Shown: piece after piece, positions 1,256 through 58,151 of the stretch | How positions within the stretch are numbered: the first letter of the stretch is position 1 | How the letters are laid out: every line of letters begins with the position of its first letter | Source of the DNA: an uncultured Bacteroidales bacterium | GTDB taxonomy: Bacteria; Bacteroidota; Bacteroidia; Bacteroidales; CAIWKO01 | Direction of reading: 5' to 3' | Length of the DNA stretch: 64,000 nt | NCBI GenBank assembly: GCA_903913285.1 | Contig: CAIWKO010000060.1 | Location: forward strand, 55,898-119,897 | Notes under the pieces: model-generated | The model's input: the letters and a program-made list of their open reading frames with translations, nothing else | What the model was told of the DNA's origin: nothing | Database searches by the model: none | Translations under genes and position numbers: made by a program

Positions 1256-1939
1256 TTATTCTTGTTCGTTTAGCATATCGGGACGACAGGTTTTGGTTCT
1301 TTCAACCGACTTTTCATAACGCCATTTAACAATTTCACTATCGTTGCCGGATAATAAAATATCAGGTACCAACATGCCTTTATAATTTGCCGGTCGAGTG
1401 TAAACAGGAGGTGCCAATAAATTATTCTGAAACGAATCGGACAAAGCAGAAGTTTCATCTCCCAACACACCGGGAATCAATCTAATTATTGAATCGCAAA
1501 GAACTATTGCGGCCAATTCACCTCCTGATAATACATAATTTCCTATTGATATTTCCCGGGTAATATAGTTCTGTCTGACTCTCTCATCTATGCCTTTGTA
1601 ATGTCCGCATAAAATGATGATATTCCCAAAAGTTGATAAATGATTGGCAACTTTTTGATCCAATAATTCCCCATCGGGGCTGGTATAAATTACTTCATCA
1701 TAGGTGCGTTCTTCTTTAAGTTTATCAATACAAGCAGCTATAGGCTCTATCATCATCACCATTCCGGCACCACCTCCATAAGGATAATCATCAACATTTT
1801 TATGCTTGTTTTGCGAATAATCGCGAAGATTATGAAAATGTATATCAACAATCCCTTTATCTTTCGCCCTTTTAATAATTGAGTAGGCAAAAGGGCTTTC
1901 GAATATTTCAGGAAAAATTGTAATTATATCAATTCGCAT
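1256..1939 (-). CDS. trmD: tRNA (guanine-N1)-methyltransferase TrmD
   Basis: [35 protein letters not shown] and [14 protein letters not shown]. Start moved to ATG at 1939. Confidence 0.97.
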
Positions 1940-1999
1940 TGGATTTCTTTTCCACAAAATTACTTTAAAAATTATTTTTTATAGAAATAAATTTTGTCA

Positions 2000-2022
2000 T
2001 TATTTAGAATTTATCTAAATTA
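2000..2022. promoter_or_regulatory. Palindromic putative iron-responsive (Fur-like) operator upstream of feoAB
   Basis: TTATTTAGAATTTATCTAAATTA dyad (ATTTAGA-N5-TCTAAAT) about 20 bp upstream of the feo start. Confidence 0.6.
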
Positions 2023-2041
2023 GCGGTCTGAAATAATTAAA

Positions 2042-4561: not shown

Positions 4562-4563
4562 TT

Positions 4564-4694
4564 GGAAGATGGAAGACCGAAGATGGAAGCACGAAGAGGA
4601 AGACCGAAGACGGAAGACGGAAGACCGAAGACGGAAGACCAAAGACGGAAGCACGAAGTCGGAAGACCGAAGTCGGAAGACCGAAGTTGGAAGG
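4564..4694 (+). repeat. Degenerate heptamer tandem array (GGAAGAC/CGAAGAC)
   Basis: About 18 imperfect 7-bp units starting immediately after the feoB stop codon. Confidence 0.9.
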
Positions 4695-4715
4695 AAAGGC
4701 TTGTGGCTAATTGCT

Positions 4716-4752
4716 AATTACTAATTTTACCCTGAGCGTAGTCGAAGGGCGC
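4716..4752 (+). repeat. Dispersed REP-like element (CCCTGAGCGTAGTCGAAGGG core), copy 1
   Basis: 37-bp exact reverse complement of 8685-8721. Confidence 0.8.
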
Positions 4753-4765
4753 AAATCACTAAAGA

Positions 4766-4945
4766 ATGACACAATTTATCATAACACTGGTTGTAGTTTT
4801 TGCTGCGGTTTTGGCTGCGGGGTACCTGATTTATAAACGCTTTAAAAAGAAAGCGAAAAAAGCGGATTGTTGTAACGGATGTTCGGAGGAATGCGGAGAT
4901 TGTGCTTTTTATAGGGAGGTTGGCAGGAAGAAAAATGAGTATTGA
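4766..4945 (+). CDS. FeoB-associated Cys-rich small membrane protein (59 aa, not in ORF track)
   Basis: Manual translation MTQFIITLVVVFAAVLAAGYLIYKRFKKKAKKADCCNGCSEECGDCAFYREVGRKKNEY*: one TM helix, basic patch, Cys cluster, downstream of feoB. Confidence 0.85.
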   Translation: MTQFIITLVVVFAAVLAAGYLIYKRFKKKAKKADCCNGCSEECGDCAFYREVGRKKNEY

Positions 4946-5259
4946 ATGTTGATGACGTTGCTCCTAATTAACATGGGATATTTTAATATTTATGAACCTT
5001 GACCAAAAGAAAGATCTTAAGTGAAAGAATAACATTAGTGCAACCATCATTGAAATGTCTATTGCTTGAAGTTCGGTTTGCAAATCAATTGAAATTTGAG
5101 AGAAATTTTCTTCATCCTGCCATCATGTCAAACAATACAACTTTCCAGTCTGAACAAACGCCCTAAAATTGCTCCTTTTTCCACATAAATTTCATTCTTT
5201 TCACCCCAAAAACATTCATTTCTTTGCCAATTAAAATATATTGCTGTAAAATAGCATGT

Positions 5260-5552
5260 TAAAGTAAAATTGGAAGCAGCTAAAGTAAAATTGGAAGCTT
5301 TTAAAGTAAAATTGGAAGCAATTAAAGTAAAATTGGAAGCCAAAAAAGCATTCTTGAACGAGTTAATACTAAAATTGGATGCATCTAAAGTAAAATTGGA
5401 AGGCACTGAAGTAAAATTGTAAGGCACTAAAGTGAAATTGCAACCTCATATGTATCCTGGAACACTGCTAAAGTCTTCTGGAAAGGTGCTAAAGTAAAAT
5501 TGCAGGCTGCTAAAGTAAAATTGCAAGCCGCTCACGCATTCTTGGAAGGCGG
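5260..5552 (+). repeat. 21-bp tandem array, consensus TAAAGTAAAATTGGAAGCNNN (~14 units)
   Basis: Units at 5260, 5281, 5302, 5323 ... 5490, 5511. One 20-nt unit (5449-5468) and several diverged units. Confidence 0.9.
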
Positions 5553-5708
5553 TTACGTGAGTCATATTTTTGACTCAAGTAATATTTCTTCCCAAAAAAG
5601 TAAAATTGCAACCAAAAATACCATTCCCGGAGCAAAACCTCAAAAACATCTCTGTGTCCCAATTTACTTGCTACCTGTTACCTTTTACCAGTTACCTGTT
5701 ACTTTAGT

Positions 5709-6872
5709 TCACTTCTTCAAAGGATGCGCGTACGTTATTACATCGTCGGCGGTTATTTTCTGGTCGCAGAGGATGATGAGGCGTTCGACGACGTTGCGCA
5801 GTTCGCGGATGTTGCCGGTCCATTTTATTTTTTGAAGTTGCTGCATGGCGTCGGGTTGAACTTTTAGCATAGGCCGACCCTGACTTTGACATATTTCGGC
5901 CACAAAATAATCGACCAGCAAGGGAATGTCGTCCATACGATCGTTAAGCGACGGGACTTCGATCAGGATCACACTCAAACGGTGATAAAGGTCTTCACGG
6001 AAAGTGTTTTTGGCGATTTCTTGTTCCAGATCTTTGTTGGTGGCAGCAATAACGCGAACGTTGACGGGAATATCTTTTTCGCCGCCGACGCGGGTGATCT
6101 TGTTTTCCTGCAAGGCACGCAGCACTTTAGCCTGCGCGGAAAGGCTCATGTCGCCAATTTCGTCGAGAAAGATGGTTCCGCCGTCGGCTTGTTCGAAATC
6201 GCCTTTGCGCTGTTTGATGGCAGAGGTGAATGAGCCTTTTTCGTGACCGAAAAGCTGGCTTTCGATGAGCTCGGAAGGGATGGCAGCGCAGTTGACCTCG
6301 ATGAAGGGATAGGAAGAGCGTTTGCTTTTTTCGTGGAGCCAATGCGCCACGAGTTCTTTGCCGGTTCCGTTGGCGCCCGTGATGAGAACACGAGCATCGG
6401 TTGGAGCCACGCGTTCGATCATGTCTTTGATGCGTTTGATAGCCATTGATTCGCCAATCATTTCCCAGTTTTTGCTGACTTTCTTTTTGAGAGCCTTGGT
6501 TTCGGTGATGAGTGTTGATTTGTCGAGGGCGTTTCGCAAGGTGATGAGCAAACGGTTGAGATCTAAAGGTTTCGCGATGAAATCGTAAGCGCCGAGTTTG
6601 ATGGATTCGACTGCGGTGTCGATATTGCCGTGACCCGAGATCATGATGACCGGGGTGTCTGTTTTTAGCATTATGGCTTTCAACACCTCGATGCCGTCCA
6701 TTTTCGGCATTTTGATGTCGCAAAGTATGACGTCGTATTTTTCTTTTTCGACGAACTGCAACCCTTCACTTCCGTCGCAGGCATCATCTACCTGGTATTT
6801 TTCGTATTCGAGAATTTCGCGTAGGGTGTTGCGGATGCTTTTTTCGTCGTCGATTACTAAGATCTTTGCCAT
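5709..6872 (-). CDS. Sigma-54-interacting response regulator (NtrC/NtrX-like; receiver + AAA+, no evident HTH)
   Basis: Receiver ILVIDDE/CDIKMP, Walker A GANGTGKE, ESQLFGHEKGSFTSA, LFLDEIG-like Walker B, FREDLYHRL and WTGNIRELRN. Confidence 0.92.
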   Translation of the reverse strand: MAKILVIDDEKSIRNTLREILEYEKYQVDDACDGSEGLQFVEKEKYDVILCDIKMPKMDGIEVLKAIMLKTDTPVIMISGHGNIDTAVESIKLGAYDFIAKPLDLNRLLITLRNALDKSTLITETKALKKKVSKNWEMIGESMAIKRIKDMIERVAPTDARVLITGANGTGKELVAHWLHEKSKRSSYPFIEVNCAAIPSELIESQLFGHEKGSFTSAIKQRKGDFEQADGGTIFLDEIGDMSLSAQAKVLRALQENKITRVGGEKDIPVNVRVIAATNKDLEQEIAKNTFREDLYHRLSVILIEVPSLNDRMDDIPLLVDYFVAEICQSQGRPMLKVQPDAMQQLQKIKWTGNIRELRNVVERLIILCDQKITADDVITYAHPLKK

Positions 6873-6989
6873 TGTTTAGGGGTTTAGCGGTTTAGCAGTT
6901 TAGCAGTTTAGACTATTAGATTTTAGGTTTAAGATTGAGAGTTTAAACTGTCGATTTTTTTCTTCTGAATTCTTACTTCTGAATTCTTA

Positions 6990-8666
6990 TTATCCTTTTA
7001 GTTTGCGGTATTTGATTCTGCCCGGCCCCACATCGCCCAAGCGTTTCTTTTTGTTTTCTTCGTATTCGGAATAGGAGCCTTCGAAAAAGTATACCTGAGA
7101 GTCGCCCTCGAAAGCGAGAATATGGGTTGCGATGCGGTCGAGAAACCAACGGTCGTGGGAAATTACGACGGCACAACCGGCGAAATTTTCGAGACCTTCT
7201 TCCAAAGCGCGAAGGGTGTTTACATCGATATCGTTGGTAGGTTCATCGAGCAGGAGGACGTTGGCTTCCTGTTTGAGCGTGAGCGCCAGATGCAAGCGGT
7301 TGCGCTCGCCACCCGACAACACACCGGCTTTTTTGCCCTGGTCGGTGCCGCTGAAGTTGAAACGCGACACATAGGCCCTTGAGTTCATGGTGCGGTTGCC
7401 AAGTATGATGTTATCGAGGCCATCGGAAATTATTTCCCAAACGTTTTTTTCGGGATCGATCTCAACATGGGCCTGGTCGACATAGGCTATTTTAACGGTT
7501 TCGCCAATTTTAAAGGTTCCGGAATCGGGCTTTTCCAAGCCCATCATCATGCGGAAGAGCGTGGTTTTGCCGGCGCCGTTCGGACCTATAACACCGACGA
7601 TACCTCCCGGAGGAAGCATGAAGGATAGGTTTTCGTACAAGAGTTTATCGCCATAAGCCTTGGAAACTTTTTGAGCATCGATGACCACATCGCCCAAACG
7701 AGGGCCGTTGGGGATAAATATCTCGAGTTTTTCTTCTTTTTGTTTTACATCTTCGTTCAACATGCTTTCGTAGGAATTCAAACGTGCCTTGCCTTTGGCA
7801 TGACGTGCTTTGGGCGCCATGCGAACCCATTCGAGTTCGCGGGCGAGGGTTTTGGCACGTTTGCTTTCGGTTTTTTCTTCCTGCTGCAGGCGTTTGGTTT
7901 TTTGTTCGAGCCACGAAGTATAGTTTCCTTTCCAGGGAATACCTTCGCCGCGGTCGAGTTCGAGAATCCAACCGGCAACATTATCGAGAAAATAGCGGTC
8001 GTGGGTAACAGCAATCACGGTTCCTTTATACTGCTGCAAATGATGTTCGAGCCATTCGACCGATTCGGCATCCAAATGGTTGGTTGGCTCATCGAGCAGC
8101 AAAATGTCGGGCTCGGAAAGCAGGAGGCGGCACAAAGCCACCCGGCGACGCTCGCCACCGGAAAGATTTGCAATATTTACATCGCTTTCGGGACAGCGCA
8201 AGGCATCGAGGGCACGTTCGAGTTTGGTATCGAGTTCCCAGGCTTCGTGCTGGTCGAGCAATTCGGTGAGTTGCCCCTGACGGTCGATAAGCTTGCTCAT
8301 TTCATCGTCGGTCATGGGTTCGGCAAACTTGTTATTCACTTCTTCGTATTCTTTCAGCATGTCGACAATGGGCTGAACGCCTTCCTGAACGATCTCTTTA
8401 ACGGTTTTTGAATTATCGAGTTTGGGTTCCTGTTCGAGATAACCAACGGAATAGCCGGGCGAAAAAACCACTTCGCCGTTGAAAGAGGTTTCGATGCCTG
8501 CAATGATCTTAAGCAGGGTTGATTTACCGGAACCGTTGAGACCGATGACCCCAATTTTGGCACCATAATAAAATGAGAGATAAATATCTTTGAGAACCTG
8601 TTTGTTTGGCGGATACGTCTTGCTGACGTTCACCATCGAGAAAATTATTTTTTTATCGTCGGCCAT
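6990..8666 (-). CDS. ettA: Energy-dependent translational throttle protein EttA (ABC-F)
   Basis: Two ABC domains; LSFYYGAKIGVIGLNGSGKST, WILELDRGEGIPWKGNYTSWLEQK, ELEWVR; 558 aa. Confidence 0.95.
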   Translation of the reverse strand: MADDKKIIFSMVNVSKTYPPNKQVLKDIYLSFYYGAKIGVIGLNGSGKSTLLKIIAGIETSFNGEVVFSPGYSVGYLEQEPKLDNSKTVKEIVQEGVQPIVDMLKEYEEVNNKFAEPMTDDEMSKLIDRQGQLTELLDQHEAWELDTKLERALDALRCPESDVNIANLSGGERRRVALCRLLLSEPDILLLDEPTNHLDAESVEWLEHHLQQYKGTVIAVTHDRYFLDNVAGWILELDRGEGIPWKGNYTSWLEQKTKRLQQEEKTESKRAKTLARELEWVRMAPKARHAKGKARLNSYESMLNEDVKQKEEKLEIFIPNGPRLGDVVIDAQKVSKAYGDKLLYENLSFMLPPGGIVGVIGPNGAGKTTLFRMMMGLEKPDSGTFKIGETVKIAYVDQAHVEIDPEKNVWEIISDGLDNIILGNRTMNSRAYVSRFNFSGTDQGKKAGVLSGGERNRLHLALTLKQEANVLLLDEPTNDIDVNTLRALEEGLENFAGCAVVISHDRWFLDRIATHILAFEGDSQVYFFEGSYSEYEENKKKRLGDVGPGRIKYRKLKG

Positions 8667-8684
8667 TATTTGAGAATATGATTA

Positions 8685-8721
8685 GCGCCCTTCGACTACG
8701 CTCAGGGTAAAATTAGTAATT
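8685..8721 (-). repeat. Dispersed REP-like element, copy 2 (inverted)
   Basis: GCGCCCTTCGACTACGCTCAGGGTAAAATTAGTAATT is the reverse complement of 4716-4752. Confidence 0.8.
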
Positions 8722-8849
8722 TGTGATTTGTGATTTTACAAAATTAAACAATTTTGGCGGGATTATCCTATTCGGTATTTTTATAAAGAGTAAACAGATG
8801 AAAGAATTCTTTCAGCATAAAACACGCAAAATTAAAGCACTCCGGGCAT

Positions 8850-9728
8850 CTATTTGGCCATGTTTTTGAAATCATCACTCAGAAAAGCATCGGGGTTGGA
8901 AGAGCTGATCTTGTGATTATCGAAATACAAAGGTTTCCCTTCTTTGGCTGTGACGATAAATTTCCAGCACGACGAACCGTCGCCGGCAGTTCCTTCAGGA
9001 CCCACTTTGTGGAGGAATGCAACTTTAGGATCGTTTTCGCTGATAGCTTTGGTAATTTCTTCTTCGGTAACAATCTTGACCGGATAGGGATAAAAGTTTT
9101 TGATCTTGGCAAGAGTCTTCACATCAGGAGCCAAATCCGATTCCAAGAACCAGAGTTCATAGTTCTTTAAATCCGAAGAATTTTCTTTCACCACTTGCTG
9201 TATGTCTTTTCCCGGATTTTTTTGCGAATAATCGATATAATACTGGATGAATTTTATTAGGACCGGGAGTTTGTATTCATATGTATCTTCATCTACTTCA
9301 GCGTAAGCAACCGGCACGATACACAAATCGGGCAATTTGTTCAGGTTTTTTGAAGCATCGCCCATCACCAAATTGAGAATCGTATAATCGAATGCATCAT
9401 CACCCTGCGAACCTTCCGACTTGAATAATGATGTTTTTGTTTTTCCGAACCGTGCCTGCGACATAAACATGAAGGAATTTTTCGGGTCGCCCATGTTTTT
9501 TTCAAATTCATCGTTGCTGATAATTTCAAAAGGAGTCACCTTCCAGATATTTTTTAACTGAGCCGAAACAAATCCGTTGAAAACCGAAAAGGGATCATCC
9601 TCAAGCACAACATAAGTTTTGGAATGCAAAAATTTTTCAACTTCTTCCTTACTGATAGCCTTCACTTGAGCTTGTAGTATTTGAAAGGAAAAGAGCATTA
9701 AAACAGAAATTATTATGATTTTTTTCAT
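8850..9728 (-). CDS. Secreted hypothetical protein
   Basis: Long ORF with signal peptide MKKIIIISVLMLFSFQILQA from ATG 9728. Confidence 0.8.
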   Translation of the reverse strand: MKKIIIISVLMLFSFQILQAQVKAISKEEVEKFLHSKTYVVLEDDPFSVFNGFVSAQLKNIWKVTPFEIISNDEFEKNMGDPKNSFMFMSQARFGKTKTSLFKSEGSQGDDAFDYTILNLVMGDASKNLNKLPDLCIVPVAYAEVDEDTYEYKLPVLIKFIQYYIDYSQKNPGKDIQQVVKENSSDLKNYELWFLESDLAPDVKTLAKIKNFYPYPVKIVTEEEITKAISENDPKVAFLHKVGPEGTAGDGSSCWKFIVTAKEGKPLYFDNHKISSSNPDAFLSDDFKNMAK

Positions 9729-9879
9729 GATACCATTTTTAAAGAAACGACATTTTGCGGGCAAATTGTATTCCAAAAGAATAAATTTTCCTATTCTGGA
9801 ATGTTATTAGACCTCAAAAATACTTTTTTTCAATTTCGATTCCGTAAAAAATCTTAATTTTGAACAAAGCAAAACCTTC

Positions 9880-10188
9880 ATGCTTATCAATATCATAAAC
9901 TGGCTTGAAAATCATCAATTGCCTTGTCTTTACGAAAAGTTATTTGGCATTGAATGTCCGGGATGCGGAACACAAAGAGCCATTATTGAGCTTTTACGAG
10001 GTAATTTTCAGGAAAGTTTTCATGCCTGGCCACCCCTCTTACCCGTGATGTTTATGATGGTCTATTTACTGCTATTTTTGAAATTCAGATTTAAAAACGG
10101 GATAACAGTTTTGAAAATAACATTTATAATTAATGCTTCGCTGATAACAATTAACTACATTTATAGATTAATTTTGCACTTAACTTAA
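9880..10188 (+). CDS. DUF2752 family membrane protein
   Basis: LPCLYEKLFGIECPGCGTQRA..LLRG motif followed by TM helices. Confidence 0.85.
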   Translation: MLINIINWLENHQLPCLYEKLFGIECPGCGTQRAIIELLRGNFQESFHAWPPLLPVMFMMVYLLLFLKFRFKNGITVLKITFIINASLITINYIYRLILHLT

Positions 10189-10213
10189 GACTTTAATATT
10201 AAACAAATATACT

Positions 10214-10558
10214 ATGGAAGAAATACAAGATCAACAGTTTCACAGAACAGTACTGCGTCAGAAAATGGTTCCTCATGCCATAACGGCAATGGTGTTTGGT
10301 ATCGTATCAATTGCTGTAATGTGCTATTTTGGATGGGTTGCTGCCATCGTTGCCCTTGTTTTGAGGAATAAGGCCATGAAAATATATAACGAGAATCCCC
10401 CTGATTATAAAGATGCATCATTAAAAATGCTCAACGCGGCTAAAATCTGCGGTATAATCGGTTTGATTGTTTCAATTGTTACTACAGTATTTTACATCCT
10501 GTATATCGTTTTTATCGTAGCAATGACGACCCATACTTCCCATCCTTATTATTACTAA
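10214..10558 (+). CDS. Small membrane protein (CCC-motif/DUF4190-like)
   Basis: Two hydrophobic segments, GIVSI..C and AAKICGIIG; adjacent to the DUF2752 gene. Confidence 0.65.
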   Translation: MEEIQDQQFHRTVLRQKMVPHAITAMVFGIVSIAVMCYFGWVAAIVALVLRNKAMKIYNENPPDYKDASLKMLNAAKICGIIGLIVSIVTTVFYILYIVFIVAMTTHTSHPYYY

Positions 10559-10568
10559 CCGATAGATA

Positions 10569-12080
10569 ATGAAAATTCTTGCTGTCAGCCAAATAAAAGA
10601 AGCCGATGCATTTACGATCGCAAATGAGCCCATTGCCTCAATCGATTTGATGGAACGTGCGGCAAATAATTGCTTTTCATGGATCCAAAGAAATATCGGC
10701 AGAAATAAGTCCTACAAAATATTTTGCGGCACCGGAAATAATGGCGGAGACGGATTAGCGATAGCCCGTATGATGGCAGGCAAAAATATTAGTGTCGAGA
10801 CATTTGTTGTGCGGTTCAGCGAAAAAAGTTCCGACGATTTTGCCACTAATTACAAAGAATTAATAAAACTTAAAAAAATTAAGGTCACGGATATTAATAC
10901 GGCATCCGACCTTCCCGAAATCAAGGAGTCCGATATTATTATCGATGCTGTTTTTGGCTCGGGATTATCGAAACCTGTGAGTCAAGGTATAGCCGCTGAA
11001 GTCATCAAGCATATCAATAAAAGCAAAGCCACGGTTGTTGCTATCGACATACCGTCAGGACTTTTCGGGGAAGATAATTCGGAAAATAGTGGTGAAATAA
11101 TTCAGGCTAATCACACGCTGACATTCCAATTTCCAAAACTTGCTTTTTTGTTTGCAGGAAATGAAAAATTTGTCGGGTCGTGGCAAATATTGCCAATAGG
11201 TTTACATCCGAAATTCATTCAGGATGTTATTACAAAGAATTATTTTGTTGAAGCAGAAGATTGCAAAAATATTCTGAAGCCGCGAAACAGGTTTTCTCAT
11301 AAAGGAACCTACGGACATGCATTGTTGGTTTGTGGTTCGTACGGTAAAATGGGAGCAGCTGTATTGGCAGCAAAAGCATGCATTAAATCAGGAGCAGGAT
11401 TGGTTAGCGCGCACATTCCTGAATGCGGATACATGGTGATGCAGACTGCAGCACCTGAAATTATGTGTCAGGTAGATAGTGATAAAAATATTTTTTCTGA
11501 TAATCTGGATATCTCTGTTTATAATTCTGTTGGTGTTGGTTCGGGAATAGGAACAGATGAAAAAACTCAGAAAGCATTGAAATTGCTGATACAGAATTCG
11601 GGGAATCCGATGGTTTTCGATGCCGATGCCATCAATATACTTGCCGAAAACAAAACATGGATATCATTTGTTCCGAAAAACTCAATCTTTACGCCTCATC
11701 CAAAAGAATTCGAACGATTGGTGGGTAAAAGCACAAACGAATTTGAACGACAAAATCTACAAATTGAGTTTTCTAAGAAATATGGTGTTTACATCGTATT
11801 AAAAGGAGCTTTCACCTGCGTCAGCACTCCTGCAGGAGATTGTTATTTCAATTCATCAGGTAATCCGGGAATGGCAACTGCCGGAAGCGGCGATTTACTG
11901 ACAGGCATCCTCACAGGATTATTGGCGCAAGGCTACACTGCTTTCGAAACTTGTATTCTGGGTGTATTTGTACACGGACTTGCCGGAGATTGCTCGGCTA
12001 AAATGCAGGGCTATGAAGCCACAACAGCCATTGAGATCATCAATATGCTGGGGAAAGCTTTTAAAAAACTGTATTCTTAA
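10569..12080 (+). CDS. nnr: Bifunctional NAD(P)H-hydrate epimerase/dehydratase
   Basis: LMERAA, CGTGNNGGDG, DAVFGSG, AIDIPSG, HKGTYG, DADA, TPHPKEF and ATAGSGD. Confidence 0.95.
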   Translation: MKILAVSQIKEADAFTIANEPIASIDLMERAANNCFSWIQRNIGRNKSYKIFCGTGNNGGDGLAIARMMAGKNISVETFVVRFSEKSSDDFATNYKELIKLKKIKVTDINTASDLPEIKESDIIIDAVFGSGLSKPVSQGIAAEVIKHINKSKATVVAIDIPSGLFGEDNSENSGEIIQANHTLTFQFPKLAFLFAGNEKFVGSWQILPIGLHPKFIQDVITKNYFVEAEDCKNILKPRNRFSHKGTYGHALLVCGSYGKMGAAVLAAKACIKSGAGLVSAHIPECGYMVMQTAAPEIMCQVDSDKNIFSDNLDISVYNSVGVGSGIGTDEKTQKALKLLIQNSGNPMVFDADAINILAENKTWISFVPKNSIFTPHPKEFERLVGKSTNEFERQNLQIEFSKKYGVYIVLKGAFTCVSTPAGDCYFNSSGNPGMATAGSGDLLTGILTGLLAQGYTAFETCILGVFVHGLAGDCSAKMQGYEATTAIEIINMLGKAFKKLYS

Positions 12081-22858: not shown

Positions 22859-24805
22859 TCATTTTGGCAAATTCTTAGTTATACCTTTCATCTTTTCCGT
22901 TAATTCCAAGCGATTATTTTTTTCGGCGAAATCTGAGATATATTGAAGCACTTTTATGGCTTCATCCAGATCATCTTTCACAGTTTGCCGGCTCTTATTA
23001 TCAAGCGAATTATAGTATTTCATTTTCTCTTCATAGATATCTGCAATACGTTCCAAAATAATGTCGCCTTTTTTTAGTTCCCCGCTGTTAATATAAAGTG
23101 TACCATAATTCAGGATGTACTTATCAAACGCTATCAAAGAATCCGGCACTATTTCCAGTCCTTTATTCAAAAATGCAATGGCCCTGTTTGTATCTCCATC
23201 TGTCAATAAGGCCACAGCCAACTTGGCATAAAGAATACGATACCAAACAAACATATCACGGGTAAAATTATCGCTTCCGGTATGTTTGTCAATTTGAGTA
23301 CCGTATTTAAATACGTTCATTAACAGATCATACGATCGTTCTTTCAGCACATCTCCCCCTGGCAAACTATCCCGTTTGACCGGCATAAAACGGTAAACTA
23401 TCCCTTCCAGATAACAGTATTTTTCAACATCAAGAAAATCCATCAGGCTAGATGGACTTGCAAAACAGATAGGGCGCTCCCAGTGGTTGGAAGCAATAAT
23501 ATCGAGCAACAGCAGGTCATTTTTGTATAGATTCTCTTCATTCACTTTCCAAAAAACGGTGTCACACAAACGGCTTCTCATCGATGCAGGAATCATGTTC
23601 TTTTTTATCAAAGCTTCTTTATCAGCAGTCAAAAAGAAATTCTTGCTTGGGTAATAACTTATATATTTCCCGTTTGCCATCATCAATTTACTTGCTATAT
23701 CATCGCTGTTAACCGAATCAATAAATGTTTTTACATTTAAACTTTTCACCGATGGGTTTTGTGAATATTCAACCCACTCGTTGCTCCCGGTTTTATATTT
23801 ATTAAAAGGTATGGTCGTTAATACTGGTTCCGAGAGATTGTGTTTAAGGTATAATTGCGCGATATACCACTCGGAGAATGCCAGAGTGAAATTTAAAACC
23901 CTCACGTCTGTTCTGTATCCTTCAGCTTCCTGCACATACAAGACGGGGTAGGTATCGTTATCACCGTTCGTTATCAGAATAGCATTGGGCGGACAAGAGT
24001 TCAGATAATTTTTTGCAATGTTAATTGCTGCATCGTTATAAAGGCCGGGAATCATAAACTCTTTGGCCAGCTTATCTTCTTTAATACTTACAAGATTCAT
24101 CCATGCATCAACATAATCGTTCGATAATTTCTCAGGAGCATAACCCACGATGGTTTGAAAATACGGATTGCGCTCGGCTAACTCTTTAATTGTTGCAATA
24201 CATTTTTTTTCAAAGAACACATAATTATCAACTTGTTCCTTGCTTGCTTTTTCATATCCGAGAATTTTCTTTTTTTGTGTATGATACATGTACTGACCGC
24301 GCAAAAATGCTTCGGCATAATTAGTATACGCCCTTCCCAGCCCGTAAAGTACCGAATCCGGCAAATTCCTGTTCTTCCCAAAAGCACTTATCACATCCCG
24401 ATCCCAGCCATTATAACCATAATAGGGATTAAATCTCCAGTCGTCAGAATTACAACTTGCCAGATAGGCTCTTATATAACTGCTATCGGTTTTGCCTTTT
24501 GTATAGTGGGTAAGAGGAATAAACTTAGCGGTTTCAAGATCCCAGAACTTTTCAACATCACGACCAACAAACTCATCCGTCTCATATACTGATTTCGAAG
24601 CATACCAGCCATCAGGTTTTCGGCATAATTCTATATTATCATCAACTTTATTATAATGGTTAAAAAAGTAATTGGCAGCATCATATAATGAAGGATACTT
24701 TTTTAATATCGCAGGATCGGTCTTTAAATATGTAATATCACTATCCTGCGCACGACACCATAGTGCGCAAAAACAAATTAAAATAACGATTCCGGCTCTT
24801 TTCAT
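22859..24805 (-). CDS. Secreted protein whose C-terminal part resembles the extramembrane region of DUF2723 glycosyltransferase-like proteins
   Basis: Signal peptide; AKNYLNSCPPNAILITNGDNDTYPVLYVQEAEGYRTDVRVLN and WERPICFA motifs; no multi-pass TM block. Confidence 0.65.
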   Translation of the reverse strand: MKRAGIVILICFCALWCRAQDSDITYLKTDPAILKKYPSLYDAANYFFNHYNKVDDNIELCRKPDGWYASKSVYETDEFVGRDVEKFWDLETAKFIPLTHYTKGKTDSSYIRAYLASCNSDDWRFNPYYGYNGWDRDVISAFGKNRNLPDSVLYGLGRAYTNYAEAFLRGQYMYHTQKKKILGYEKASKEQVDNYVFFEKKCIATIKELAERNPYFQTIVGYAPEKLSNDYVDAWMNLVSIKEDKLAKEFMIPGLYNDAAINIAKNYLNSCPPNAILITNGDNDTYPVLYVQEAEGYRTDVRVLNFTLAFSEWYIAQLYLKHNLSEPVLTTIPFNKYKTGSNEWVEYSQNPSVKSLNVKTFIDSVNSDDIASKLMMANGKYISYYPSKNFFLTADKEALIKKNMIPASMRSRLCDTVFWKVNEENLYKNDLLLLDIIASNHWERPICFASPSSLMDFLDVEKYCYLEGIVYRFMPVKRDSLPGGDVLKERSYDLLMNVFKYGTQIDKHTGSDNFTRDMFVWYRILYAKLAVALLTDGDTNRAIAFLNKGLEIVPDSLIAFDKYILNYGTLYINSGELKKGDIILERIADIYEEKMKYYNSLDNKSRQTVKDDLDEAIKVLQYISDFAEKNNRLELTEKMKGITKNLPK

Positions 24806-24829: not shown

Positions 24830-24862
24830 AGTCGTAGTACGACTTGAAGTCGTGCTACGACT
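24830..24862. repeat. REP-like near-perfect palindrome
   Basis: AGTCGTAGTACGACTT-G-AAGTCGTGCTACGACT (16-bp arms, one mismatch). Confidence 0.75.
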
Positions 24863-25002
24863 ACTATTTAAAATCCTTTCAACGAAACTTCAATAAAAGG
24901 CTATTCTATTGCTTCGAATTTTTTATTGATCAATGATAGTAATACTGAGGCAGAGACTGCTGATGAAAGTGAGCTGCTGGCTTATTTTATCTATGATCTG
25001 TC

Positions 25003-26010
25003 CTATTGAAAAATTCTCTTTTCTATCTTTTTCAGTACAACAAGGTCATCAATTGTCTTTTTTAAATAGCTTACCATTTCTGGAATTTGTTCTTCATTTT
25101 CAATTATAAACTTAGCTAATTTTTCATAACGACCAATTGTCAAAACACCATCCGAGTCAACGGTCTCCCAATTTTTTAAATTTTTCTTTAATACATTAAA
25201 CAAGTTATCTGTTTCTTTATACTTATCTGAAATTGTCAATTCAATTTCTGTTCCAATGTAAACTTCTTCATTAGACCACCAAAAGAATCCTATATTTACA
25301 AATGACTTAAATTTGCTTTTAACATCTACATAATGATAGGTAGCATAAGAAAATTCTCTTTCAATTTTAGTACTTCTTGATGATTGCTTAGCCAATCCGC
25401 AAATTTTATTTTCATAATATTCAGTGATCCCATCAATAACTTCATTCATTTTGCTTATTGTATCAGTTATTTTGGTTAATACGTTTAGGTCGGAATAATT
25501 AAAATTTTTTGAGTCTGCCATGTTTTCTTCTTTTAAAAATGATTTGAATTCGTTCGTTAATTGGGTGTTTTTTTTATCTATTATTTGAAAAATATCAGCC
25601 CACTTCATCAAGTGGAAAAGAACTGATTTGTCATATATTTCTTTTAAGTTGTAATATTTTGTTAGGTATACAAGATGTCTCTTTGTGATAGATTTACTTA
25701 GTAAAATCTTTTTATAGTCGTCCAGTTGGTTTGGTCTCTCAAAGTGTTCTATTTTACATTCAATTAAAATACAAGTTTTTTTTGTCGGAATATTTATTTC
25801 AATATCAGGTCTGCCAAACTCATAGCTTTTTTGTGTTTTGATAGTCGTTTCGCTGTCAGCCTGCAAGTCAAGTTTTTCAAGAAAGTTGTCACGAAATAAT
25901 TTGTCTGCCTGTAAACAATTTGCGAAAATTTCTATTAAGAAATTTTCTTTGGAATTGGTGTTTTCTCTTTCCCTGTATGAATATATTTTACTAAAAACTG
26001 ATTCTGTCAT
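25003..26010 (-). CDS. PD-(D/E)XK nuclease superfamily protein
   Basis: EN...E helix, then GRPDIEI...ILIECKI....RPNQLDDY and VYLT, typical of PDDEXK_4-like proteins; AT-rich. Confidence 0.8.
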   Translation of the reverse strand: MTESVFSKIYSYRERENTNSKENFLIEIFANCLQADKLFRDNFLEKLDLQADSETTIKTQKSYEFGRPDIEINIPTKKTCILIECKIEHFERPNQLDDYKKILLSKSITKRHLVYLTKYYNLKEIYDKSVLFHLMKWADIFQIIDKKNTQLTNEFKSFLKEENMADSKNFNYSDLNVLTKITDTISKMNEVIDGITEYYENKICGLAKQSSRSTKIEREFSYATYHYVDVKSKFKSFVNIGFFWWSNEEVYIGTEIELTISDKYKETDNLFNVLKKNLKNWETVDSDGVLTIGRYEKLAKFIIENEEQIPEMVSYLKKTIDDLVVLKKIEKRIFQ

Positions 26011-26157
26011 TTTTTTATAATTGATGTCGTTTCAAAAAGCAGCGTACTATTTAAAATCCTTTTTACAAAACTTGGTCAATTGGTGTAGTTACAAACTACA
26101 ATTACAAAATGCGAAGCTTGAAACTTTGCATAACTTAAAATATTACCTGTTAACTTA

Positions 26158-27381
26158 TTAATAAAGTTGAACAGTTTTCTGCCCATATTTGATATCAGTA
26201 TAGTTGTCAGATATTTTTTTAATTACCAAATATTCAAATACTTCTAAAGACTTCCTGATTAGGGGAATAATAGTTTGAAAGTCGTTTGTATTCGATAATG
26301 AAATATGATATTCACTTTCTTTATTATGAACAATACAGCATCTTAATCCATAAATAAACTCTGCTACTTTGCGTATTGAACTTGGACTGAAACCATCAAC
26401 AATTTTTTTGTCTCTTAAAAAAGTTATTTCATTCGCATTAGCCACTGGTGTCAATGCAGGCTTTATTATTGATACAAGGTCAGGTGTGAATATTTTCGAA
26501 AAATTTCTGATAAAAGATTCTTTTTCTCCCTTTTTCATACTTTCTGCTGAATTAATAAATTCTCTCACAAAAATTCTACTTGACCCAACGCGATTTACTA
26601 AATCAACTAAATAAACCCGATAGACTAAATATTCAAAAGTGTGATAAAGTCTTAAAAAACGATTCAAGATGTCTGGAGATTGATTTAGTTCGTTTATTAC
26701 ATCATAAATATCAAAATACTGTTCATAATCTTTAGTTGAATCAAAAGATAAACCTGGATAAATTAATGTTTTTGAATACTTTAGATCACTTTGAAGAAGT
26801 ATCGACTTGGCATCATTTAAAAAAGACAAATAAATAAATGGGTAGTGTTTGTCTTCATCAAAAGGAATAGCTGACTTGTTAATTACTAGTCCTTTATTTA
26901 AATCTAGGTTTGAAATAATGTCGAAGAATTCATTTATAAAAACATTATTTACAATTGAGTAGCATCTTTCTAAATACTCTTCAATTTGCTTCCAAATTAT
27001 TTCGAAATTTGGCTTTGATAAATCAATTATGTCGCCACTATCAAAAAGCGTTGATGACGATACAAATCCATAGTCAGTGTTTGAATATGCGAACCTTCTG
27101 TTTCTATTTTGAAATTTAGGTTGGGAAAAATCAATCTTTGTTGGATTTCCGATTATTGTGTAAGGTAAACTTAAAAATCCACCTTTATTATCTTTCCTTA
27201 TTTGTTCAAGTGATTTTATGAATTTCTGAAAAATAGGAGGTGGGTTCAATAGTAATAACCATTGTAGCCCTTCTTCAAGATTATCATCAATATCAATAAT
27301 ATCAATTAGGTCTTGATCATTAAATCCCAAGTAAGTATTTAAAGATAGGATGACCTTTGATAAAAGTTCGTTACCTGTCAT
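26158..27381 (-). CDS. HEPN-like (RxxxxH) domain protein, putative defence effector
   Basis: RFLRLYHTFEY upstream helix and IYGLRCCIVHNKESEYH (R-x4-H); AT-rich; starts 6 bp after the upstream gene's stop. Confidence 0.65.
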   Translation of the reverse strand: MTGNELLSKVILSLNTYLGFNDQDLIDIIDIDDNLEEGLQWLLLLNPPPIFQKFIKSLEQIRKDNKGGFLSLPYTIIGNPTKIDFSQPKFQNRNRRFAYSNTDYGFVSSSTLFDSGDIIDLSKPNFEIIWKQIEEYLERCYSIVNNVFINEFFDIISNLDLNKGLVINKSAIPFDEDKHYPFIYLSFLNDAKSILLQSDLKYSKTLIYPGLSFDSTKDYEQYFDIYDVINELNQSPDILNRFLRLYHTFEYLVYRVYLVDLVNRVGSSRIFVREFINSAESMKKGEKESFIRNFSKIFTPDLVSIIKPALTPVANANEITFLRDKKIVDGFSPSSIRKVAEFIYGLRCCIVHNKESEYHISLSNTNDFQTIIPLIRKSLEVFEYLVIKKISDNYTDIKYGQKTVQLY

Positions 27382-27387
27382 AGCTAT

Positions 27388-28620
27388 CTATTTTTCTCTT
27401 ATTTGATTAAATATTTCACTCCAAGTCAATTGCTTTTCTTCGAGCAATGATTGAGTATATTCCATTACAACTTTTCTAATGAAAGAACCAATATTTACCG
27501 ACCTACTGGAAAGCACATTATATTCGTTCGTGAACTGAGTTAAGTTAAGTCCATTTTTTGTAATAGAATTATTCAACTTTTCGAAAACATCATTAGTTTG
27601 ACTGAAAACATTTTCTGGGTCTTGGAGGTTAATTTTCCTACCAATTGCTGCGAATATACCGCTAAGAGAAGTATCCTTAGAAAACCATTCTTTCCCTTTC
27701 GCGTCATTTATAGAAATCAATTTATCCAGCTCAAATAACTTATTTAAAAACAAGTCTAGGTATTCTTTACTAAAAACTATATCATATACTTTCTCTGGTG
27801 TTTCTTCACTATCAATAAATTCGTTTTCAATTAATTTGTCAGTTGATACTCTTAGTGGTTTGCCTTCCACTAGCGATTGTAGAGCTACTATAACGGAAGA
27901 AAACATAAACTGACCTAATTCTCTGATTCCCCTTTTTATATCGTTAGCATTTATATTTTTTTCTCTAAAAAGTTGTATTGGGGTATCAGAATTATTTATT
28001 GTTTCAAAATAATGAAGAAATAACAGCTCAAATTGGTGGGTCTTTGATACAGATTTTTGTCCTGCATTTAAGAGTAGCATTTTTTGAATTACTTCTTTCT
28101 CATTTAACCCAGTCCAAATGGTAAAATAAACATCATAATTGCTAAATCTTGATGGTATTTTCTCTATTTCATTTGTTTCAATTAATGATTTTATTAAACG
28201 AGTTGACATGACTCCTGAATCAAAAAATAATGGATTTATTTCCTTCAACTCTTTTGCAAAAGTTCTATAATCAGATTTTGTCTTAGAATATTGCTTTGAT
28301 GTGGCGAGATGAGCCCATAAGCGGAAAGACCGTTGAAGTCCATCTAAAATTTCAGTTTCAGACAAATCAAAAGAGACTTGATTATAATCTATTTCATTAA
28401 GTTTTGATTTTTTATATGTAAGTGTAATAGTAGGGATAGGGTCGCCTATCTGTATTGTTGAGTAGAGTTTGTCTAAATATTGATTTTTGACAATCCTTCT
28501 CTGAATTGCATACTCGTAGAAATCTATTTTCAAACCTTCTAAGTAATCTATTAATTTCCCTTTACATAGATACCAAGTCCTATGTTGGATTTCCTTTTTG
28601 TCTAGAATTTCTATTTCCAT
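27388..28620 (-). CDS. DGQHR/DndB/DUF262-like (ParB-superfamily) domain protein
   Basis: IQRRIV, GDPIPTITL, EILDGLQRS and MLLLNAGQKSV motifs. Confidence 0.7.
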   Translation of the reverse strand: MEIEILDKKEIQHRTWYLCKGKLIDYLEGLKIDFYEYAIQRRIVKNQYLDKLYSTIQIGDPIPTITLTYKKSKLNEIDYNQVSFDLSETEILDGLQRSFRLWAHLATSKQYSKTKSDYRTFAKELKEINPLFFDSGVMSTRLIKSLIETNEIEKIPSRFSNYDVYFTIWTGLNEKEVIQKMLLLNAGQKSVSKTHQFELLFLHYFETINNSDTPIQLFREKNINANDIKRGIRELGQFMFSSVIVALQSLVEGKPLRVSTDKLIENEFIDSEETPEKVYDIVFSKEYLDLFLNKLFELDKLISINDAKGKEWFSKDTSLSGIFAAIGRKINLQDPENVFSQTNDVFEKLNNSITKNGLNLTQFTNEYNVLSSRSVNIGSFIRKVVMEYTQSLLEEKQLTWSEIFNQIREK

Positions 28621-28886
28621 TTCGAATAGTTATTGATTTTTAGCTTGTAGGCAAAATTTGTATGAAACATTGATATAATTTTTATTCTACCTATTCAGTA
28701 GGTGCAATCCATGTATCCATTGGCCAAGTTTCCAAACTTCCCACAAAAATATTCTTTAGTTTCCAATCACATACAAATTTCACCTCAAATATATAAATTT
28801 ATTCGATTGAAAATTATTTTTTCAAAAAAAATCATATTATTTTCTCAAAAAAAAACAACGATTAAAGCTTTAAAAAACATAAAAGT

Positions 28887-29138
28887 CAAATTGAAAACAA
28901 CGATTATCAAAATCTGAACAATGGATTACAAAATCTGAACAACGACAATCAAAATTATGACTATGGATGACAAAAATATGACAATGGATGACAAAATCTG
29001 AACAACGACAATCAAAATTATGACAATGGATGACAAAATTATGACAATGGATGACAAAATGGAGTCAACGACGATCAAATTCTGAACAACGACAATCAAA
29101 ATTACGACAATGGATGACAAAATGGAGTCAACGACAAT
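28887..29138 (+). repeat. 21-bp tandem array A1 (CAAAAT-NNNNN-CAA-YGRNNAN type), 12 units
   Basis: Units such as CAAAATCTGAACAACGACAAT, CAAAATTATGACAATGGATGA and CAAAATGGAGTCAACGACAAT in exact 21-bp register. Confidence 0.92.
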
Positions 29139-29277
29139 CAAAATGTAAAAAATCAAAACAAAAAAACAAATCAAGTTGTTAATTATCAATATAATAATAA
29201 ATAAGTCAACCAATTTACTTCTTAACAAATTAACCAACGAACTCAAAAATCACACCCCTAAAACAAAAATAACAACA

Positions 29278-29550
29278 CACTACCTCGTCCGAACGACACT
29301 TCACCTCGTCGGAACGACTACGTTTCTCGTCCGAACGACACTATTCCTTCTCCGGACGACTCTGTTCCTCTTCCGAACCGCACTATTCCTTCTCCGGACA
29401 ACACTATCCCTTCTCCGGACGACACTATCCCTTCTCCGGACGACACTATCCCTCTTCCGGACGACACTATCCCTTCTCCGAACGACTCTGTCACTCGTCC
29501 GAACGACTCTGCACCTTTTTCAGACTACATCAAACCTTTTTCAAACAACA
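29278..29550 (+). repeat. 21-bp tandem array B1 (CTATCCCTTCTCCGGACGACA type), ~13 units
   Basis: Continuous 21-bp register; translates as LSLLRTT heptads in ORF 29176..29628. Confidence 0.92.
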
Positions 29551-29839
29551 TCAAACATCTTCCGGGTCATCCTTTATATCACCTCGCTCATAGCTTTTTA
29601 TCCCGTAACCACCGGAATACATCTCTAAACTCTTATCATTTTCTGTAGCCCTTCGCCGAATATTCTGCCCGATTATCTTATTCCTTATCATCTTGCCGTT
29701 TCTTAACACACTATAGGATTGTTTTTATAAAAAAACATCCCTGGCTATCATCTTTTAAAAATAATTAAAAAACTTTTCACCGCTTAAATCGTTGTTTTTA
29801 TGATTATTCACTACTGTGCGAAACAGATTAATGAAATTA

Positions 29840-29884: not shown

Positions 29885-30121
29885 TCCCCGAAATGATAAA
29901 ACGATCTTCAGATCAAAATTTTAAAATGGCTCTAAGTTTAATTTTTAATAGTGTTGGTAATAAAGTGAAACGTGTTGAGAATCATCTGCGCCTTATCTCA
30001 GAGGATAGGATGATTTTCAGCGGCTTCACCCTTTAGGGAAGGGGAAAAAAGACGTTGAAAATCAATTAAAAGTCATTTGGAAAGAACAACAAACAACAAA
30101 CGACAAACAAACAACAACAAA

Positions 30122-46295: not shown

Positions 46296-46566
46296 GATTT
46301 GCTTATAAATTACTTAACAACCAAAAATTATCAATTAGAACTTGGTTATAACAAAGATATAATTTTTTCAAAAACAAATCCTTAATAATTTATTATTTGG
46401 GTTGAGGTAACATGATTTTAATTAATTGCACGCAACGGGATACGCAAGCGAGCAGTGTGAAGTATGTTTTAATGTCAACGACAATAGCTTTCAGAAAAAC
46501 ATAAATCATTTTACAATAACAATTTTGAATCAAAAGCAACCATAAAAACTAAAAAAACGCTAAAGT

Positions 46567-46650
46567 CAAATTTAGAACAACGAAGTACAAAATCTGAACA
46601 ACCAAGTACAAAATATCGACAATGAAGTACAAAATGAAGTCAACGACAAT
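46567..46650 (+). repeat. 21-bp tandem array A2 (4 units), homologous to array A1
   Basis: CAAATTTAGAACAACGAAGTA, CAAAATCTGAACAACCAAGTA, CAAAATATCGACAATGAAGTA, CAAAATGAAGTCAACGACAAT. Confidence 0.85.
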
Positions 46651-46864: not shown

Positions 46865-47305
46865 CATCGTGAACGAGAAATATGACATCGTGAATAAGAA
46901 TTACGACATCGTGAATAAGAAATATAACATCGTGAATAAGAAATATGACATCGTGAATAAGAAATATGACATCGTGAATAAGAATTACGACATCGTGAAT
47001 AAGAAATATAACATCGTGAATAAGAATTATAACATCGTGAATAAGAATTATGACATCGTGAATAAGAAATACGACTGTGTGAATAAGAAATACGACTTCG
47101 TGAATAAGAATTATGACATCGTGAATAAAAATTACGACATCGTGAATAAGAAATATGACATCGTGAATAAGAAATATGACATCGTGAATAAGAAATATAA
47201 CATCGTGAATAAGAATTATAACATCGTGAATAAGAATTATAACATCGTGAATAAGAATTATGACATCGTGAATAAGAAATACGACTGTGTGAATAAGAAA
47301 TACGA
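46865..47305 (+). repeat. 21-bp tandem array B2 (CATCGTGAATAAGAAWTAYRA), 21 units
   Basis: Uninterrupted 21-bp register; translates as IVNKKYD heptads. Confidence 0.97.
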
Positions 47306-47519
47306 CTTCGACGATTTTAGTTACTATTACAACCCCATTCGGCAGCAAGCTCCGCCTCCTTTGGCTTATTTATGCCATCCGTGGCTTGTGGCTACAAATA
47401 AACAAACCCGGCATCAAATTCCTTACTTTCAGGAAAATAATATTCAATTTTGTGCGTTTTCTAAAAGAATAAACGCCATAACTTTTATTAAATAATTGCC
47501 AAATCAAAACTATACTCCG

Positions 47520-57790: not shown

Positions 57791-58151
57791 TTCGCACGAG
57801 TTGGGAAAGGGTTCGCACGGCCAAGGAAAGGGTTCGCACGGCCGGGGAAAGGGTTCGCACGGCCAGAGAAATGGTTCGCACGGCCGGGGAAATGGTTCGC
57901 TCACGGGACGATATGGTTCGCTCGTAGAACGATACCGTTCGCACGACCGGGGAAAGGGTTCGCACGACTCAGGAAAGGGTTCGCACGACTTGGGAGACCT
58001 CCGCACGACCAAGGAAAGAGTTCGCACGACTGAGGAAAGGGTTCGCACGGCCAAGGAAAGGGTTCGCACGAGTTGGGATGCCTCCGCACGACCGGGGAAA
58101 GGGTTCGCACGGCTGAGGAAAGGGTTCGCACGAGCCGGGAAAGGGTTCGCA
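57791..58151 (+). repeat. 21-bp tandem array TTCGCACG-N5-GGAAAGGG, 17 units plus a partial
   Basis: Conserved 16-nt core GGAAAGGGTTCGCACG with a variable pentamer (AGTTG, GCCAA, GCCGG, GCCAG, ACCGG, ACTCA, ACTTG, ACCAA, ACTGA, GCTGA, AGCCG); two 20-nt units. Confidence 0.96.

Follow-up and report, generated by a model that had tools for sequence, protein, structure and literature searches.

A divergent Dazbog gene pair with a predicted HEPN-like DzbB in an uncultured Bacteroidales bacterium

The 64,000-nucleotide stretch analysed here (the window; positions 55,898 to 119,897 of contig CAIWKO010000060.1, from an uncultured Bacteroidales bacterium) carries three genes for which a first-pass annotation had proposed a sensor-RNase pair, Dazbog-like or new, with an accessory DNase. 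Genes 1 and 2 very probably belong to the Dazbog phage defence family and, judged by their sequences, are a divergent pair in a distinct, well-supported clade. The best explanation overall, which we hold to be reasonably probable, is that DzbA acts as the sensor and DzbB as the RNase effector, with gene 3 separate from both. The three genes are:

27388..28620, minus strand: gene 1, dzbA (410 amino acids)
26158..27381, minus strand: gene 2, dzbB (407 amino acids)
25003..26010, minus strand: gene 3, stand-alone nuclease of the PDDEXK_4 type, a predicted DNase (335 amino acids)

DzbA and DzbB were the sole PADLOC models matched by genes 1 and 2, in the order typical of Dazbog. Gene 1 matched the DzbA model (PDLC03835) in two stretches with an E value of 5.6e-36, and gene 2 matched the DzbB model (PDLC03836) over profile positions 112-336 of 341 (E 4.2e-8). 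Neither gene had a meaningful match in Pfam or NCBIfam. When a DzbA profile built from the window clade was aligned with high-scoring DzbA, the match ran end to end over 346 columns (probability 99.8). The PADLOC models and the profile-profile matches thus agree with the earlier proposal of a Dazbog-like pair of a ParB/DUF262 and a HEPN-like protein; the suggestion of a new system was not supported. The assignment of gene 1 to the DGQHR/DndB type did not hold, since its motif reads DGLQR and no Pfam, NCBIfam or PADLOC model for DndB or DGQHR was matched.

A first genome scan with a single protein found nothing, and a search of viral contigs gave no relative of dzbA. A protein search yielded 392 relatives of gene 1, and a 65-sequence DzbA profile detected 23 genome and 68 metagenome loci (91 dzbA loci, falling into 51 clusters at 80% identity). 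In all 44 clusters with at least 400 nt of downstream sequence the next gene was a relative of gene 2. DzbA proteins of the clade, taken from loci L027-L105, all matched the PADLOC DzbA model (14/14, E 6e-27 to 1e-38), and 13 of 14 DzbB proteins from these loci matched the DzbB model (E 5e-5 to 3e-15). The comparison set consisted of plasmid loci and of loci from Bacteroidota, where the DzbB model matched 7 of 301 genomes; several of the loci in this set score E 1e-97 to 1e-150 on DzbA. In a midpoint-rooted DzbA tree of 18 rows, the window protein grouped with proteins from Bacteroidota, Priestia and Clostridium at 100/99 support, and eight other rows stood apart from this clade. The DzbB tree was poorly resolved at its base. 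Where named, members of the window clade are mostly Bacteroidota, and identity between the two DzbA clades is 21-28% in local alignments. The contrast between the clades is one with high-scoring Dazbog proteins.

DzbA is a predicted ParB/DUF262-type nucleoside triphosphatase (NTPase) with a helical C-terminal domain, a prediction drawn from its motifs and from a structure model with a predicted local distance difference test (pLDDT) score of 86. Motif II (D93-G-L-Q-R97, the DGxQR of DUF262 proteins) was invariant in all 65 aligned relatives, and Q40-R41 of motif I (QRxxxW) and N185 of motif III (FxxxN) were invariant too. The Trp of motif I and the Phe of motif III are absent from the window protein, as they mostly are from the other Dazbog clade. 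Pfam GmrSD_N weakly matched one of the 65 members. The best fold match of the model was SspE (Z 6.6, root-mean-square deviation (rmsd) 4.1, 145 aligned), followed by chain A of 9jfl, a DndBCDE-DndI entry (Z 4.9), BrxU (Z 4.8) and ParB (Z 4.5). Foldseek returned nothing from the PDB for this model at E up to 0.001; ParB, BrxU and SspE recurred among the weak rows. Sequence searches of the PDB with the DzbA and DzbB profiles were blank.

The window clade is set apart by an insert in DzbA:

28190..28320, minus strand: clade-specific insert of about 45 residues (approximately 101-144) within the ParB domain, with approximate ends; predicted to be helical

The distance between the DGxQR and LNxG motifs was 91-101 amino acids in all ten rows of the window clade and 39-52 in all eight of the other clade; in the larger DzbA alignment it was 89-94 in 65 of 65 relatives. 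The insert appears as a gap in the profile-profile alignment with the other clade, and its helices come from the structure model. DzbB differs as well. The DzbB profiles of the two clades align over residues 233-359 only (probability 97.8), which leaves the first ~230 residues of the window-clade protein unaligned. This half is poorly conserved within the clade too: the mean share of the top residue per 40-residue block is 0.20-0.30, and 0.27-0.48 in the C-terminal half.

The conserved half of DzbB contains the features that led to its functional prediction:

26197..26736, minus strand: predicted HEPN-like domain of DzbB, residues about 216-395 (from motif residues and the fold list)
26326..26343, minus strand: R-x4-H motif RCCIVH, residues 347-352 (from the sequence)

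Residues E250, Y344, R347, H352 and H359 were invariant in all 143 aligned relatives, and the R-x4-H pattern was present in 67 of 68 full-length dzbB neighbours. The Glu and the R-x4-H aligned in 19 of 19 DzbB proteins from both clades and were invariant in the nine of the other clade. In the DzbB model (pLDDT 95) the R-x4-H lies at the end of helix 336-351. A survey of HEPN proteins places R-x4-6-H at the end of helix 3 (PMC3710099). E250 is in a long helix, and the position four residues further on is Tyr or Phe, where HEPN proteins typically have E-x3-[KR]. A fold search over 48,161 chains put AbiA at the top (Z 6.6, rmsd 3.7, 117 aligned), with three HEPN toxins at 6.5 and HI0074, YutE, MtlR, AbiV and Csm6 also at or near the top; all these matches fell on residues about 216-400 (Z 5-6.6, rmsd 3.1-4.5, 103-127 aligned). 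Most of the top rows are HEPN chains, a family whose fold consists of four helices with an insert between helices 2 and 3. The nearest Atlas cluster is named ApeA-like HEPN (0.98). It is the motif, its position and the consistency of the fold list that argue for a HEPN domain, the Z values being ambiguous by themselves. DzbB is thus quite likely, as a prediction from conserved residues and a model, to be an active HEPN RNase. No printed assignment of DzbB to HEPN was found in the papers searched; the figures and supplements of the discovery preprint lay outside this search and may already annotate DzbB. In the available text of a 2024 survey, Dazbog is not among the 18 HEPN-bearing systems (10.1101/2024.10.26.620412). 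A Foldseek search of the DzbB model against viral structures gave nothing at E up to 0.001.

The Dazbog system of Bacillus mycoides is described as acting by abortive infection, with the cytosine methylase that phage SPR encodes as its trigger (10.1101/2022.08.27.505566), and defence was abolished by mutating or deleting the DUF262 gene (PMC10952713). In SspE and GmrSD the DUF262 domain is reported to sense modified DNA and to activate a nuclease by way of its NTPase activity, while DNA is bound by the helical domain that follows (PMC12065111). The window pair likely defends against phage by abortive infection as well. DzbA would bind nucleotide at the DGxQR site and DNA with its helical C-terminal domain, as in SspE and BrxU; what it recognises may be a DNA modification linked to the phage, or else the enzyme that makes it, and DzbA would then switch on DzbB, probably within a physical complex. 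The HEPN domains of two DzbB molecules would together make up a single active site that cleaves host RNA, and growth would stop. The leading guess for the RNA target, by analogy to PrrC and ApeA, is tRNA. That DzbB is the killing step downstream of DzbA seems to us somewhat better than an even bet. Structure prediction of a DzbA-DzbB complex gave weak support, with a value of 0.46 against 0.00 for the best of three controls. The prediction runs shared at least 53% of contacts, and the pLDDT of the partners was at least 86. Of 157 solved pairs 116 reached the mark set for a complex, as did 2 of 215 mismatched ones; among those that reached it at 0.60 or under were only 18 solved pairs and both mismatches.

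In the window clade the trigger may be a different one, set by the insert and by the variable N-terminus of DzbB, and the insert is a candidate determinant of that trigger. The host encodes N4/N6, type I and cytosine methylases, the latter two on other contigs. Since a generic 5-methylcytosine trigger would be self-destructive in a host with its own cytosine methylase, the trigger in this clade would have to be another one or depend on sequence. The further proposal of a second, widespread Dazbog type, in which the helical insert and the different DzbB N-terminus give a trigger other than cytosine methylation and DzbB is a HEPN tRNA nuclease activated in the DzbA-DzbB complex, is put forward tentatively, and we would not expect all of it to hold.

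Gene 3 had no meaningful Pfam or NCBIfam match of its own. A search with it gave 117 proteins, itself included, many of which carry PF14281, and a 57% identical orthologue passes the PF14281 cut-off that the window protein does not. P68-D69 and E84-x-K86 were conserved at 100% (to two decimals) of 109 relatives, with Q95 also noted, and the Atlas supports a nuclease. The first-pass identification of gene 3 as a PD-(D/E)XK nuclease was therefore correct, and the motifs it had pointed out in all three proteins proved to be conserved. The match to PDC-S26 was weak and confined to residues 22-154, in the N-terminal part (E 1.7e-9). Nothing was found in the literature connecting PDDEXK_4 with phage defence.

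The role of gene 3 as an accessory of the pair was not borne out. Among the ORFs (open reading frames) of the 91 dzbA loci BLASTP detected no relative of gene 3, and the gene after dzbB belonged to 39 families in 56 loci (33 clusters), none of them present in more than two clusters; the third gene thus varies freely among the relatives. The 57% orthologue resides in a different gene array of a same-genus genome, G008 (85% complete), and dzbA was found neither there nor in any of 21 further genomes of the family that were searched, many of which are incomplete. A gene 3 query against 300 order-level genomes found nothing; it was found in 4 of 400 phylum-level genomes, where the flanks are too short to judge the presence of dzbA. 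Gene 3 is, in addition, bracketed by a direct repeat:

26045..26073, no strand: 29-nt direct repeat, copy 1 (family D6; repeat search)
24862..24890, no strand: 29-nt direct repeat, copy 2 (repeat search)

The copies are 90% alike at a spacing of 1183, their 18-nt exact core occurs at only these two places in the genome, and such a repeat arose in one of 1000 simulations. Because the third gene varies, the orthologue occurs without a detected dzbA and the repeat brackets the gene, gene 3 is read as a separate arrival, and we are confident that it is a passenger independent of the Dazbog pair.

A number of observations weigh against parts of this interpretation. The window DzbB has a low model score (31 bits, as compared with 163-248 for the best members), and the DzbB profile of the window clade missed the two best-scoring Bacteroidota DzbB and a single Pseudomonas DzbB (probability 0.9). 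Its motif Arg is followed by Cys, as in 83 of the 143 relatives (Asn in the other 60), and according to the HEPN survey this residue is mostly N, D or H (PMC3710099). Z values of 5-6.6 fall in a range that is ambiguous for helical bundles, and Foldseek of the DzbB model against the PDB was blank at E up to 0.001. A dzbB deletion is reported to have been untransformable, 'possibly due to toxicity', and was grouped with three toxin-antitoxin deletions (10.1101/2022.05.11.491447). The cytosine methylase of the host is a further point of this kind. The 109-sequence gene 3 profile did find one distant PDDEXK_4 gene (E 0.0047; PDC-S26), in locus L031, 96 bp after dzbB, which is the only datum linking this type of gene to dzbAB. 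Finally, in a scan of 110 neighbours from 20 sampled loci, nine loci lacked any neighbour matched by PADLOC. The other 11 speak for a defence context: each had at least one such neighbour (E up to 1e-8, in some cases to generic helicase-type models only, and without a background control). The location of two clusters inside type I R-M (restriction-modification) operons, described below, points the same way. As for the sensor-RNase pair proposed at first pass, family membership and catalytic-type residues support it; its mechanism is what we infer, and the untransformable deletion counts against it.

That deletion suggests that DzbA alone is harmful and is restrained by DzbB. In such an inverted arrangement DzbA would be the toxic component, as an unrestrained NTPase or a DNA-binding clamp, and DzbB would keep it in check until a phage signal arrives, by binding DzbA or by cutting its mRNA. 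Loss of defence without the DUF262 gene would be seen in this case too, and the weak predicted complex fits a toxin-antitoxin pair equally well. However, invariance of E250, R347 and H352 in 143 of 143 relatives and across both clades exceeds the needs of an antitoxin that only binds, DUF262 domains are the sensors in SspE and GmrSD/BrxU (PMC12065111), and HEPN domains are the effectors in PrrC, ApeA and AbiA-type systems. We regard the inverted arrangement as unlikely, although it is the most serious competitor of an RNase effector DzbB. It is less probable still that the pair guards restriction-modification (R-M) in the manner of PrrC, which is such a guard (PMC3710099), watching a host R-M complex or methylation pattern and firing when phage proteins disturb it, instead of reading the phage DNA itself. 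In two clusters (L029/L056 and L077) dzbAB sits within a type I R-M operon and ends 1-2 bp ahead of hsdR, genes for methylases or restriction enzymes flank L119, L125, L126, L127, L128 and L130, and the host has the type I and cytosine methylases mentioned above. Yet the seed search found an R-M gene in only 5 of 25 evaluable clusters (L028, from PADLOC, would make six; there was no background control), the window has none by model and seed scans, and the Bacillus system answered the phage methylase when cloned in another host (10.1101/2022.08.27.505566).

A three-gene system, with the nuclease as an accessory, would for example have the nuclease make DNA fragments that activate the HEPN protein as dinucleotides activate ApeA. 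The three genes share a strand and are similar in GC content and third-position GC content (GC3), gene 3 is 147 bp away, L031 has its distant PDDEXK_4 gene in third position, and the Atlas places ApeA-like clusters, whose namesake is reported to be activated by deoxydinucleotides, nearest DzbB. Against this stand the failure of BLASTP to find a gene 3 relative in the 91 loci, the 39 third-gene families, the same-genus orthologue without a detected dzbA and the direct repeat that marks gene 3 as its own unit. Such a system is very improbable. The divergent Dazbog pair with a separate gene 3 remains the preferred explanation.

The window pair resembles Dazbog in the adjacency and order of the genes, the full-length DzbA homology, the DUF262-type first gene, the homology of the C-terminal part of DzbB, where E and R-x4-H are shared, and the third gene that is not fixed; it differs in its separate clade, the ~45-residue DzbA insert and the unaligned first ~230 residues of DzbB. 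DzbA shares the ParB/DUF262 fold, DGxQR and the helical domain behind it with SspE, BrxU/GmrSD and 9jfl. SspE and BrxU fuse a DNase to the sensor (PMC12065111, PMC10952713), whereas DzbA has none and pairs with a HEPN-like protein, and, unlike SspE, BrxU and GmrSD, it has motif I without Trp and motif III without Phe. DzbB is similar to ApeA and PrrC in that a regulatory N-terminal part precedes a HEPN domain, predicted in DzbB, that carries R-x4-H, and in the association with abortive infection; PrrC, like some dzbAB pairs, is found inside a type I R-M operon. ApeA and PrrC, however, are single proteins, whereas dzbAB are two genes and the RNA target of DzbB is a prediction. ApeA is also longer, with its HEPN domain described at 335-583 in Ec2ApeA, and the PADLOC ApeA and PrrC models did not match the window genes. 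PD-T4-2 and the ParB+HEPN operons of the HEPN survey (RiboL-PSP-HEPN, MAE_28990) likewise combine a DUF262/ParB gene with a HEPN gene as described; no PADLOC or Pfam model for them matched genes 1 or 2, and they are a parallel architecture, not the same family. Gene 3 shares with PDC-S26/PDDEXK_4 (PF14281) an N-terminal PD-(D/E)XK domain in a single gene. Its PDC-S26 match covers ~100-130 residues with E 1.7e-9 and 5e-7, as against 1.8e-128 for a true member. PDC-S26 is a candidate system that is not known to have been tested.

As the first-pass annotation had stated, the three genes are co-oriented and AT-rich, genes 1 and 2 being separated by 6 bp (27382-27387) and genes 2 and 3 by 147 bp. 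Their GC contents are 30.3, 28.7 and 28.2%, compared with 39.0% for the genome, in whose long ORFs (n=1,971) values of 30% or less occur in 3.3% and of 28% or less in 1.5%. GC3 is 0.22-0.26 in genes 1-3, 0.43-0.54 in four flanking genes and 0.37 in the adjacent TPR gene. Public contigs bridge gene 3, gene 2 and gene 1 (run X2, record 11, 25860-28103) and likewise the junction of the TPR gene with gene 3. Since they span the junctions, the gene order is no assembly artefact. The bridging contigs come from four lake-water runs of one study, and none of the public contigs, which can show presence only, lacked gene 3. The earlier statement that methyltransferase or dnd/ssp genes are not nearby was confirmed: no such model matched any of the 46 other long window ORFs scanned or the two ORFs adjoining gene 3, and eight R-M seed proteins searched against the window gave nothing. 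Scans for promoters (25 found, 28 expected) and terminators (10 found, 6.7 expected) were at chance level.

Upstream of dzbA there are two arrays of 21-nt tandem repeats, at 28886-29150 and 29283-29556. Long ORFs at 28926-29246 and 29176-29628 were rejected as genes, as they overlie these arrays. Similar arrays occur in the window at 5260-5440, 46563-46635, 46865-47310 and 57791-58151 and on other contigs, and public contigs end inside the 21-nt arrays. The palindromic structures near the genes are:

24830..24862, no strand: 15-bp palindromic hairpin at the downstream edge of the cassette (z -6.2)
26084..26131, no strand: two short hairpins between dzbB and gene 3 (z -1.7, weak)

The former, which we take to be REP-like, recurs in similar form at five further sites of the genome, and sequence like the latter was found on contig C37 and in several same-genus genomes. 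Another palindromic repeat, at 30011-30069, recurs at many sites in same-genus genomes. No attC-like fold was present on either side of gene 3 in the window. The G008 orthologue of gene 3 is flanked on either side by a long, imperfect hairpin (z -1.0 and -1.1). Its array (L016, G008:C1:180000-198000, 1494-10605) consists of seven co-oriented genes of 26-36% GC including the orthologue, with caspase-like and SIR2/STALD-like matches and attC-looking long imperfect hairpins between genes (z -1.0, -1.1, -3.5), and a tyrosine recombinase lies ~12 kb away on the same contig. It is possibly an integron-like defence array.

The site of the cassette, between gcvT and padR, varies and in some genomes contains defence genes. 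Six same-genus genomes have gcvT either next to padR or separated from it by one to five genes, and the genes found there differ. Two others have AT-rich defence-like genes upstream of padR: a TIR-NLR match in G004 (L021 5997-8333, E 3e-119), and in G013 (L018 5064-8204) a weak STAND-like ATPase with a 324-amino-acid partner of no known family. The TPR gene (22859-24805, minus strand) encodes a 648-amino-acid TPR-bearing protein with a hydrophobic N-terminus and has 37% GC; related DNA occurs on contigs C13 and C68 and in relatives, and is absent from the site in the closest relative. This gene may be part of the inserted block.

Neighbours of dzbAB elsewhere are diverse. In L029 the immediate neighbours of the pair are hsdS on one side and hsdR on the other, and the operon of L077 also contains a SIR2-HerA pair. 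In L119, L127 and L130 dzbAB of the other clade adjoin genes for DNA cytosine methylases, at a distance of 5 bp in L119 and 14 bp in L127, despite cytosine methylase being the published trigger. In six loci (L047, L074, L089, L090, L105, L111), most of them metagenome contigs, dzbAB are followed by polysaccharide-synthesis genes, encoding a glycosyltransferase, a nucleotidyltransferase, a UDP-galactopyranose mutase or a MatE flippase.

That defence genes collect at a variable site is nothing unusual, and the locus is one such case; the cassette itself could already be named. What the analysis adds is the HEPN reading of DzbB and the clade bearing the DzbA insert. The mechanism of Dazbog is still called unclear in reviews from 2025-2026. 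The HEPN reading points to E250, R347 and H352 as the residues bearing on which of the two proteins kills, and could account for the failure to transform the dzbB deletion. For the question of how the trigger is selected, the insert-bearing clade provides a natural comparison. If the tentative proposal of a second type were true, it would name the missing effector of Dazbog, and Dazbog would be the ParB-NTPase counterpart of PrrC.

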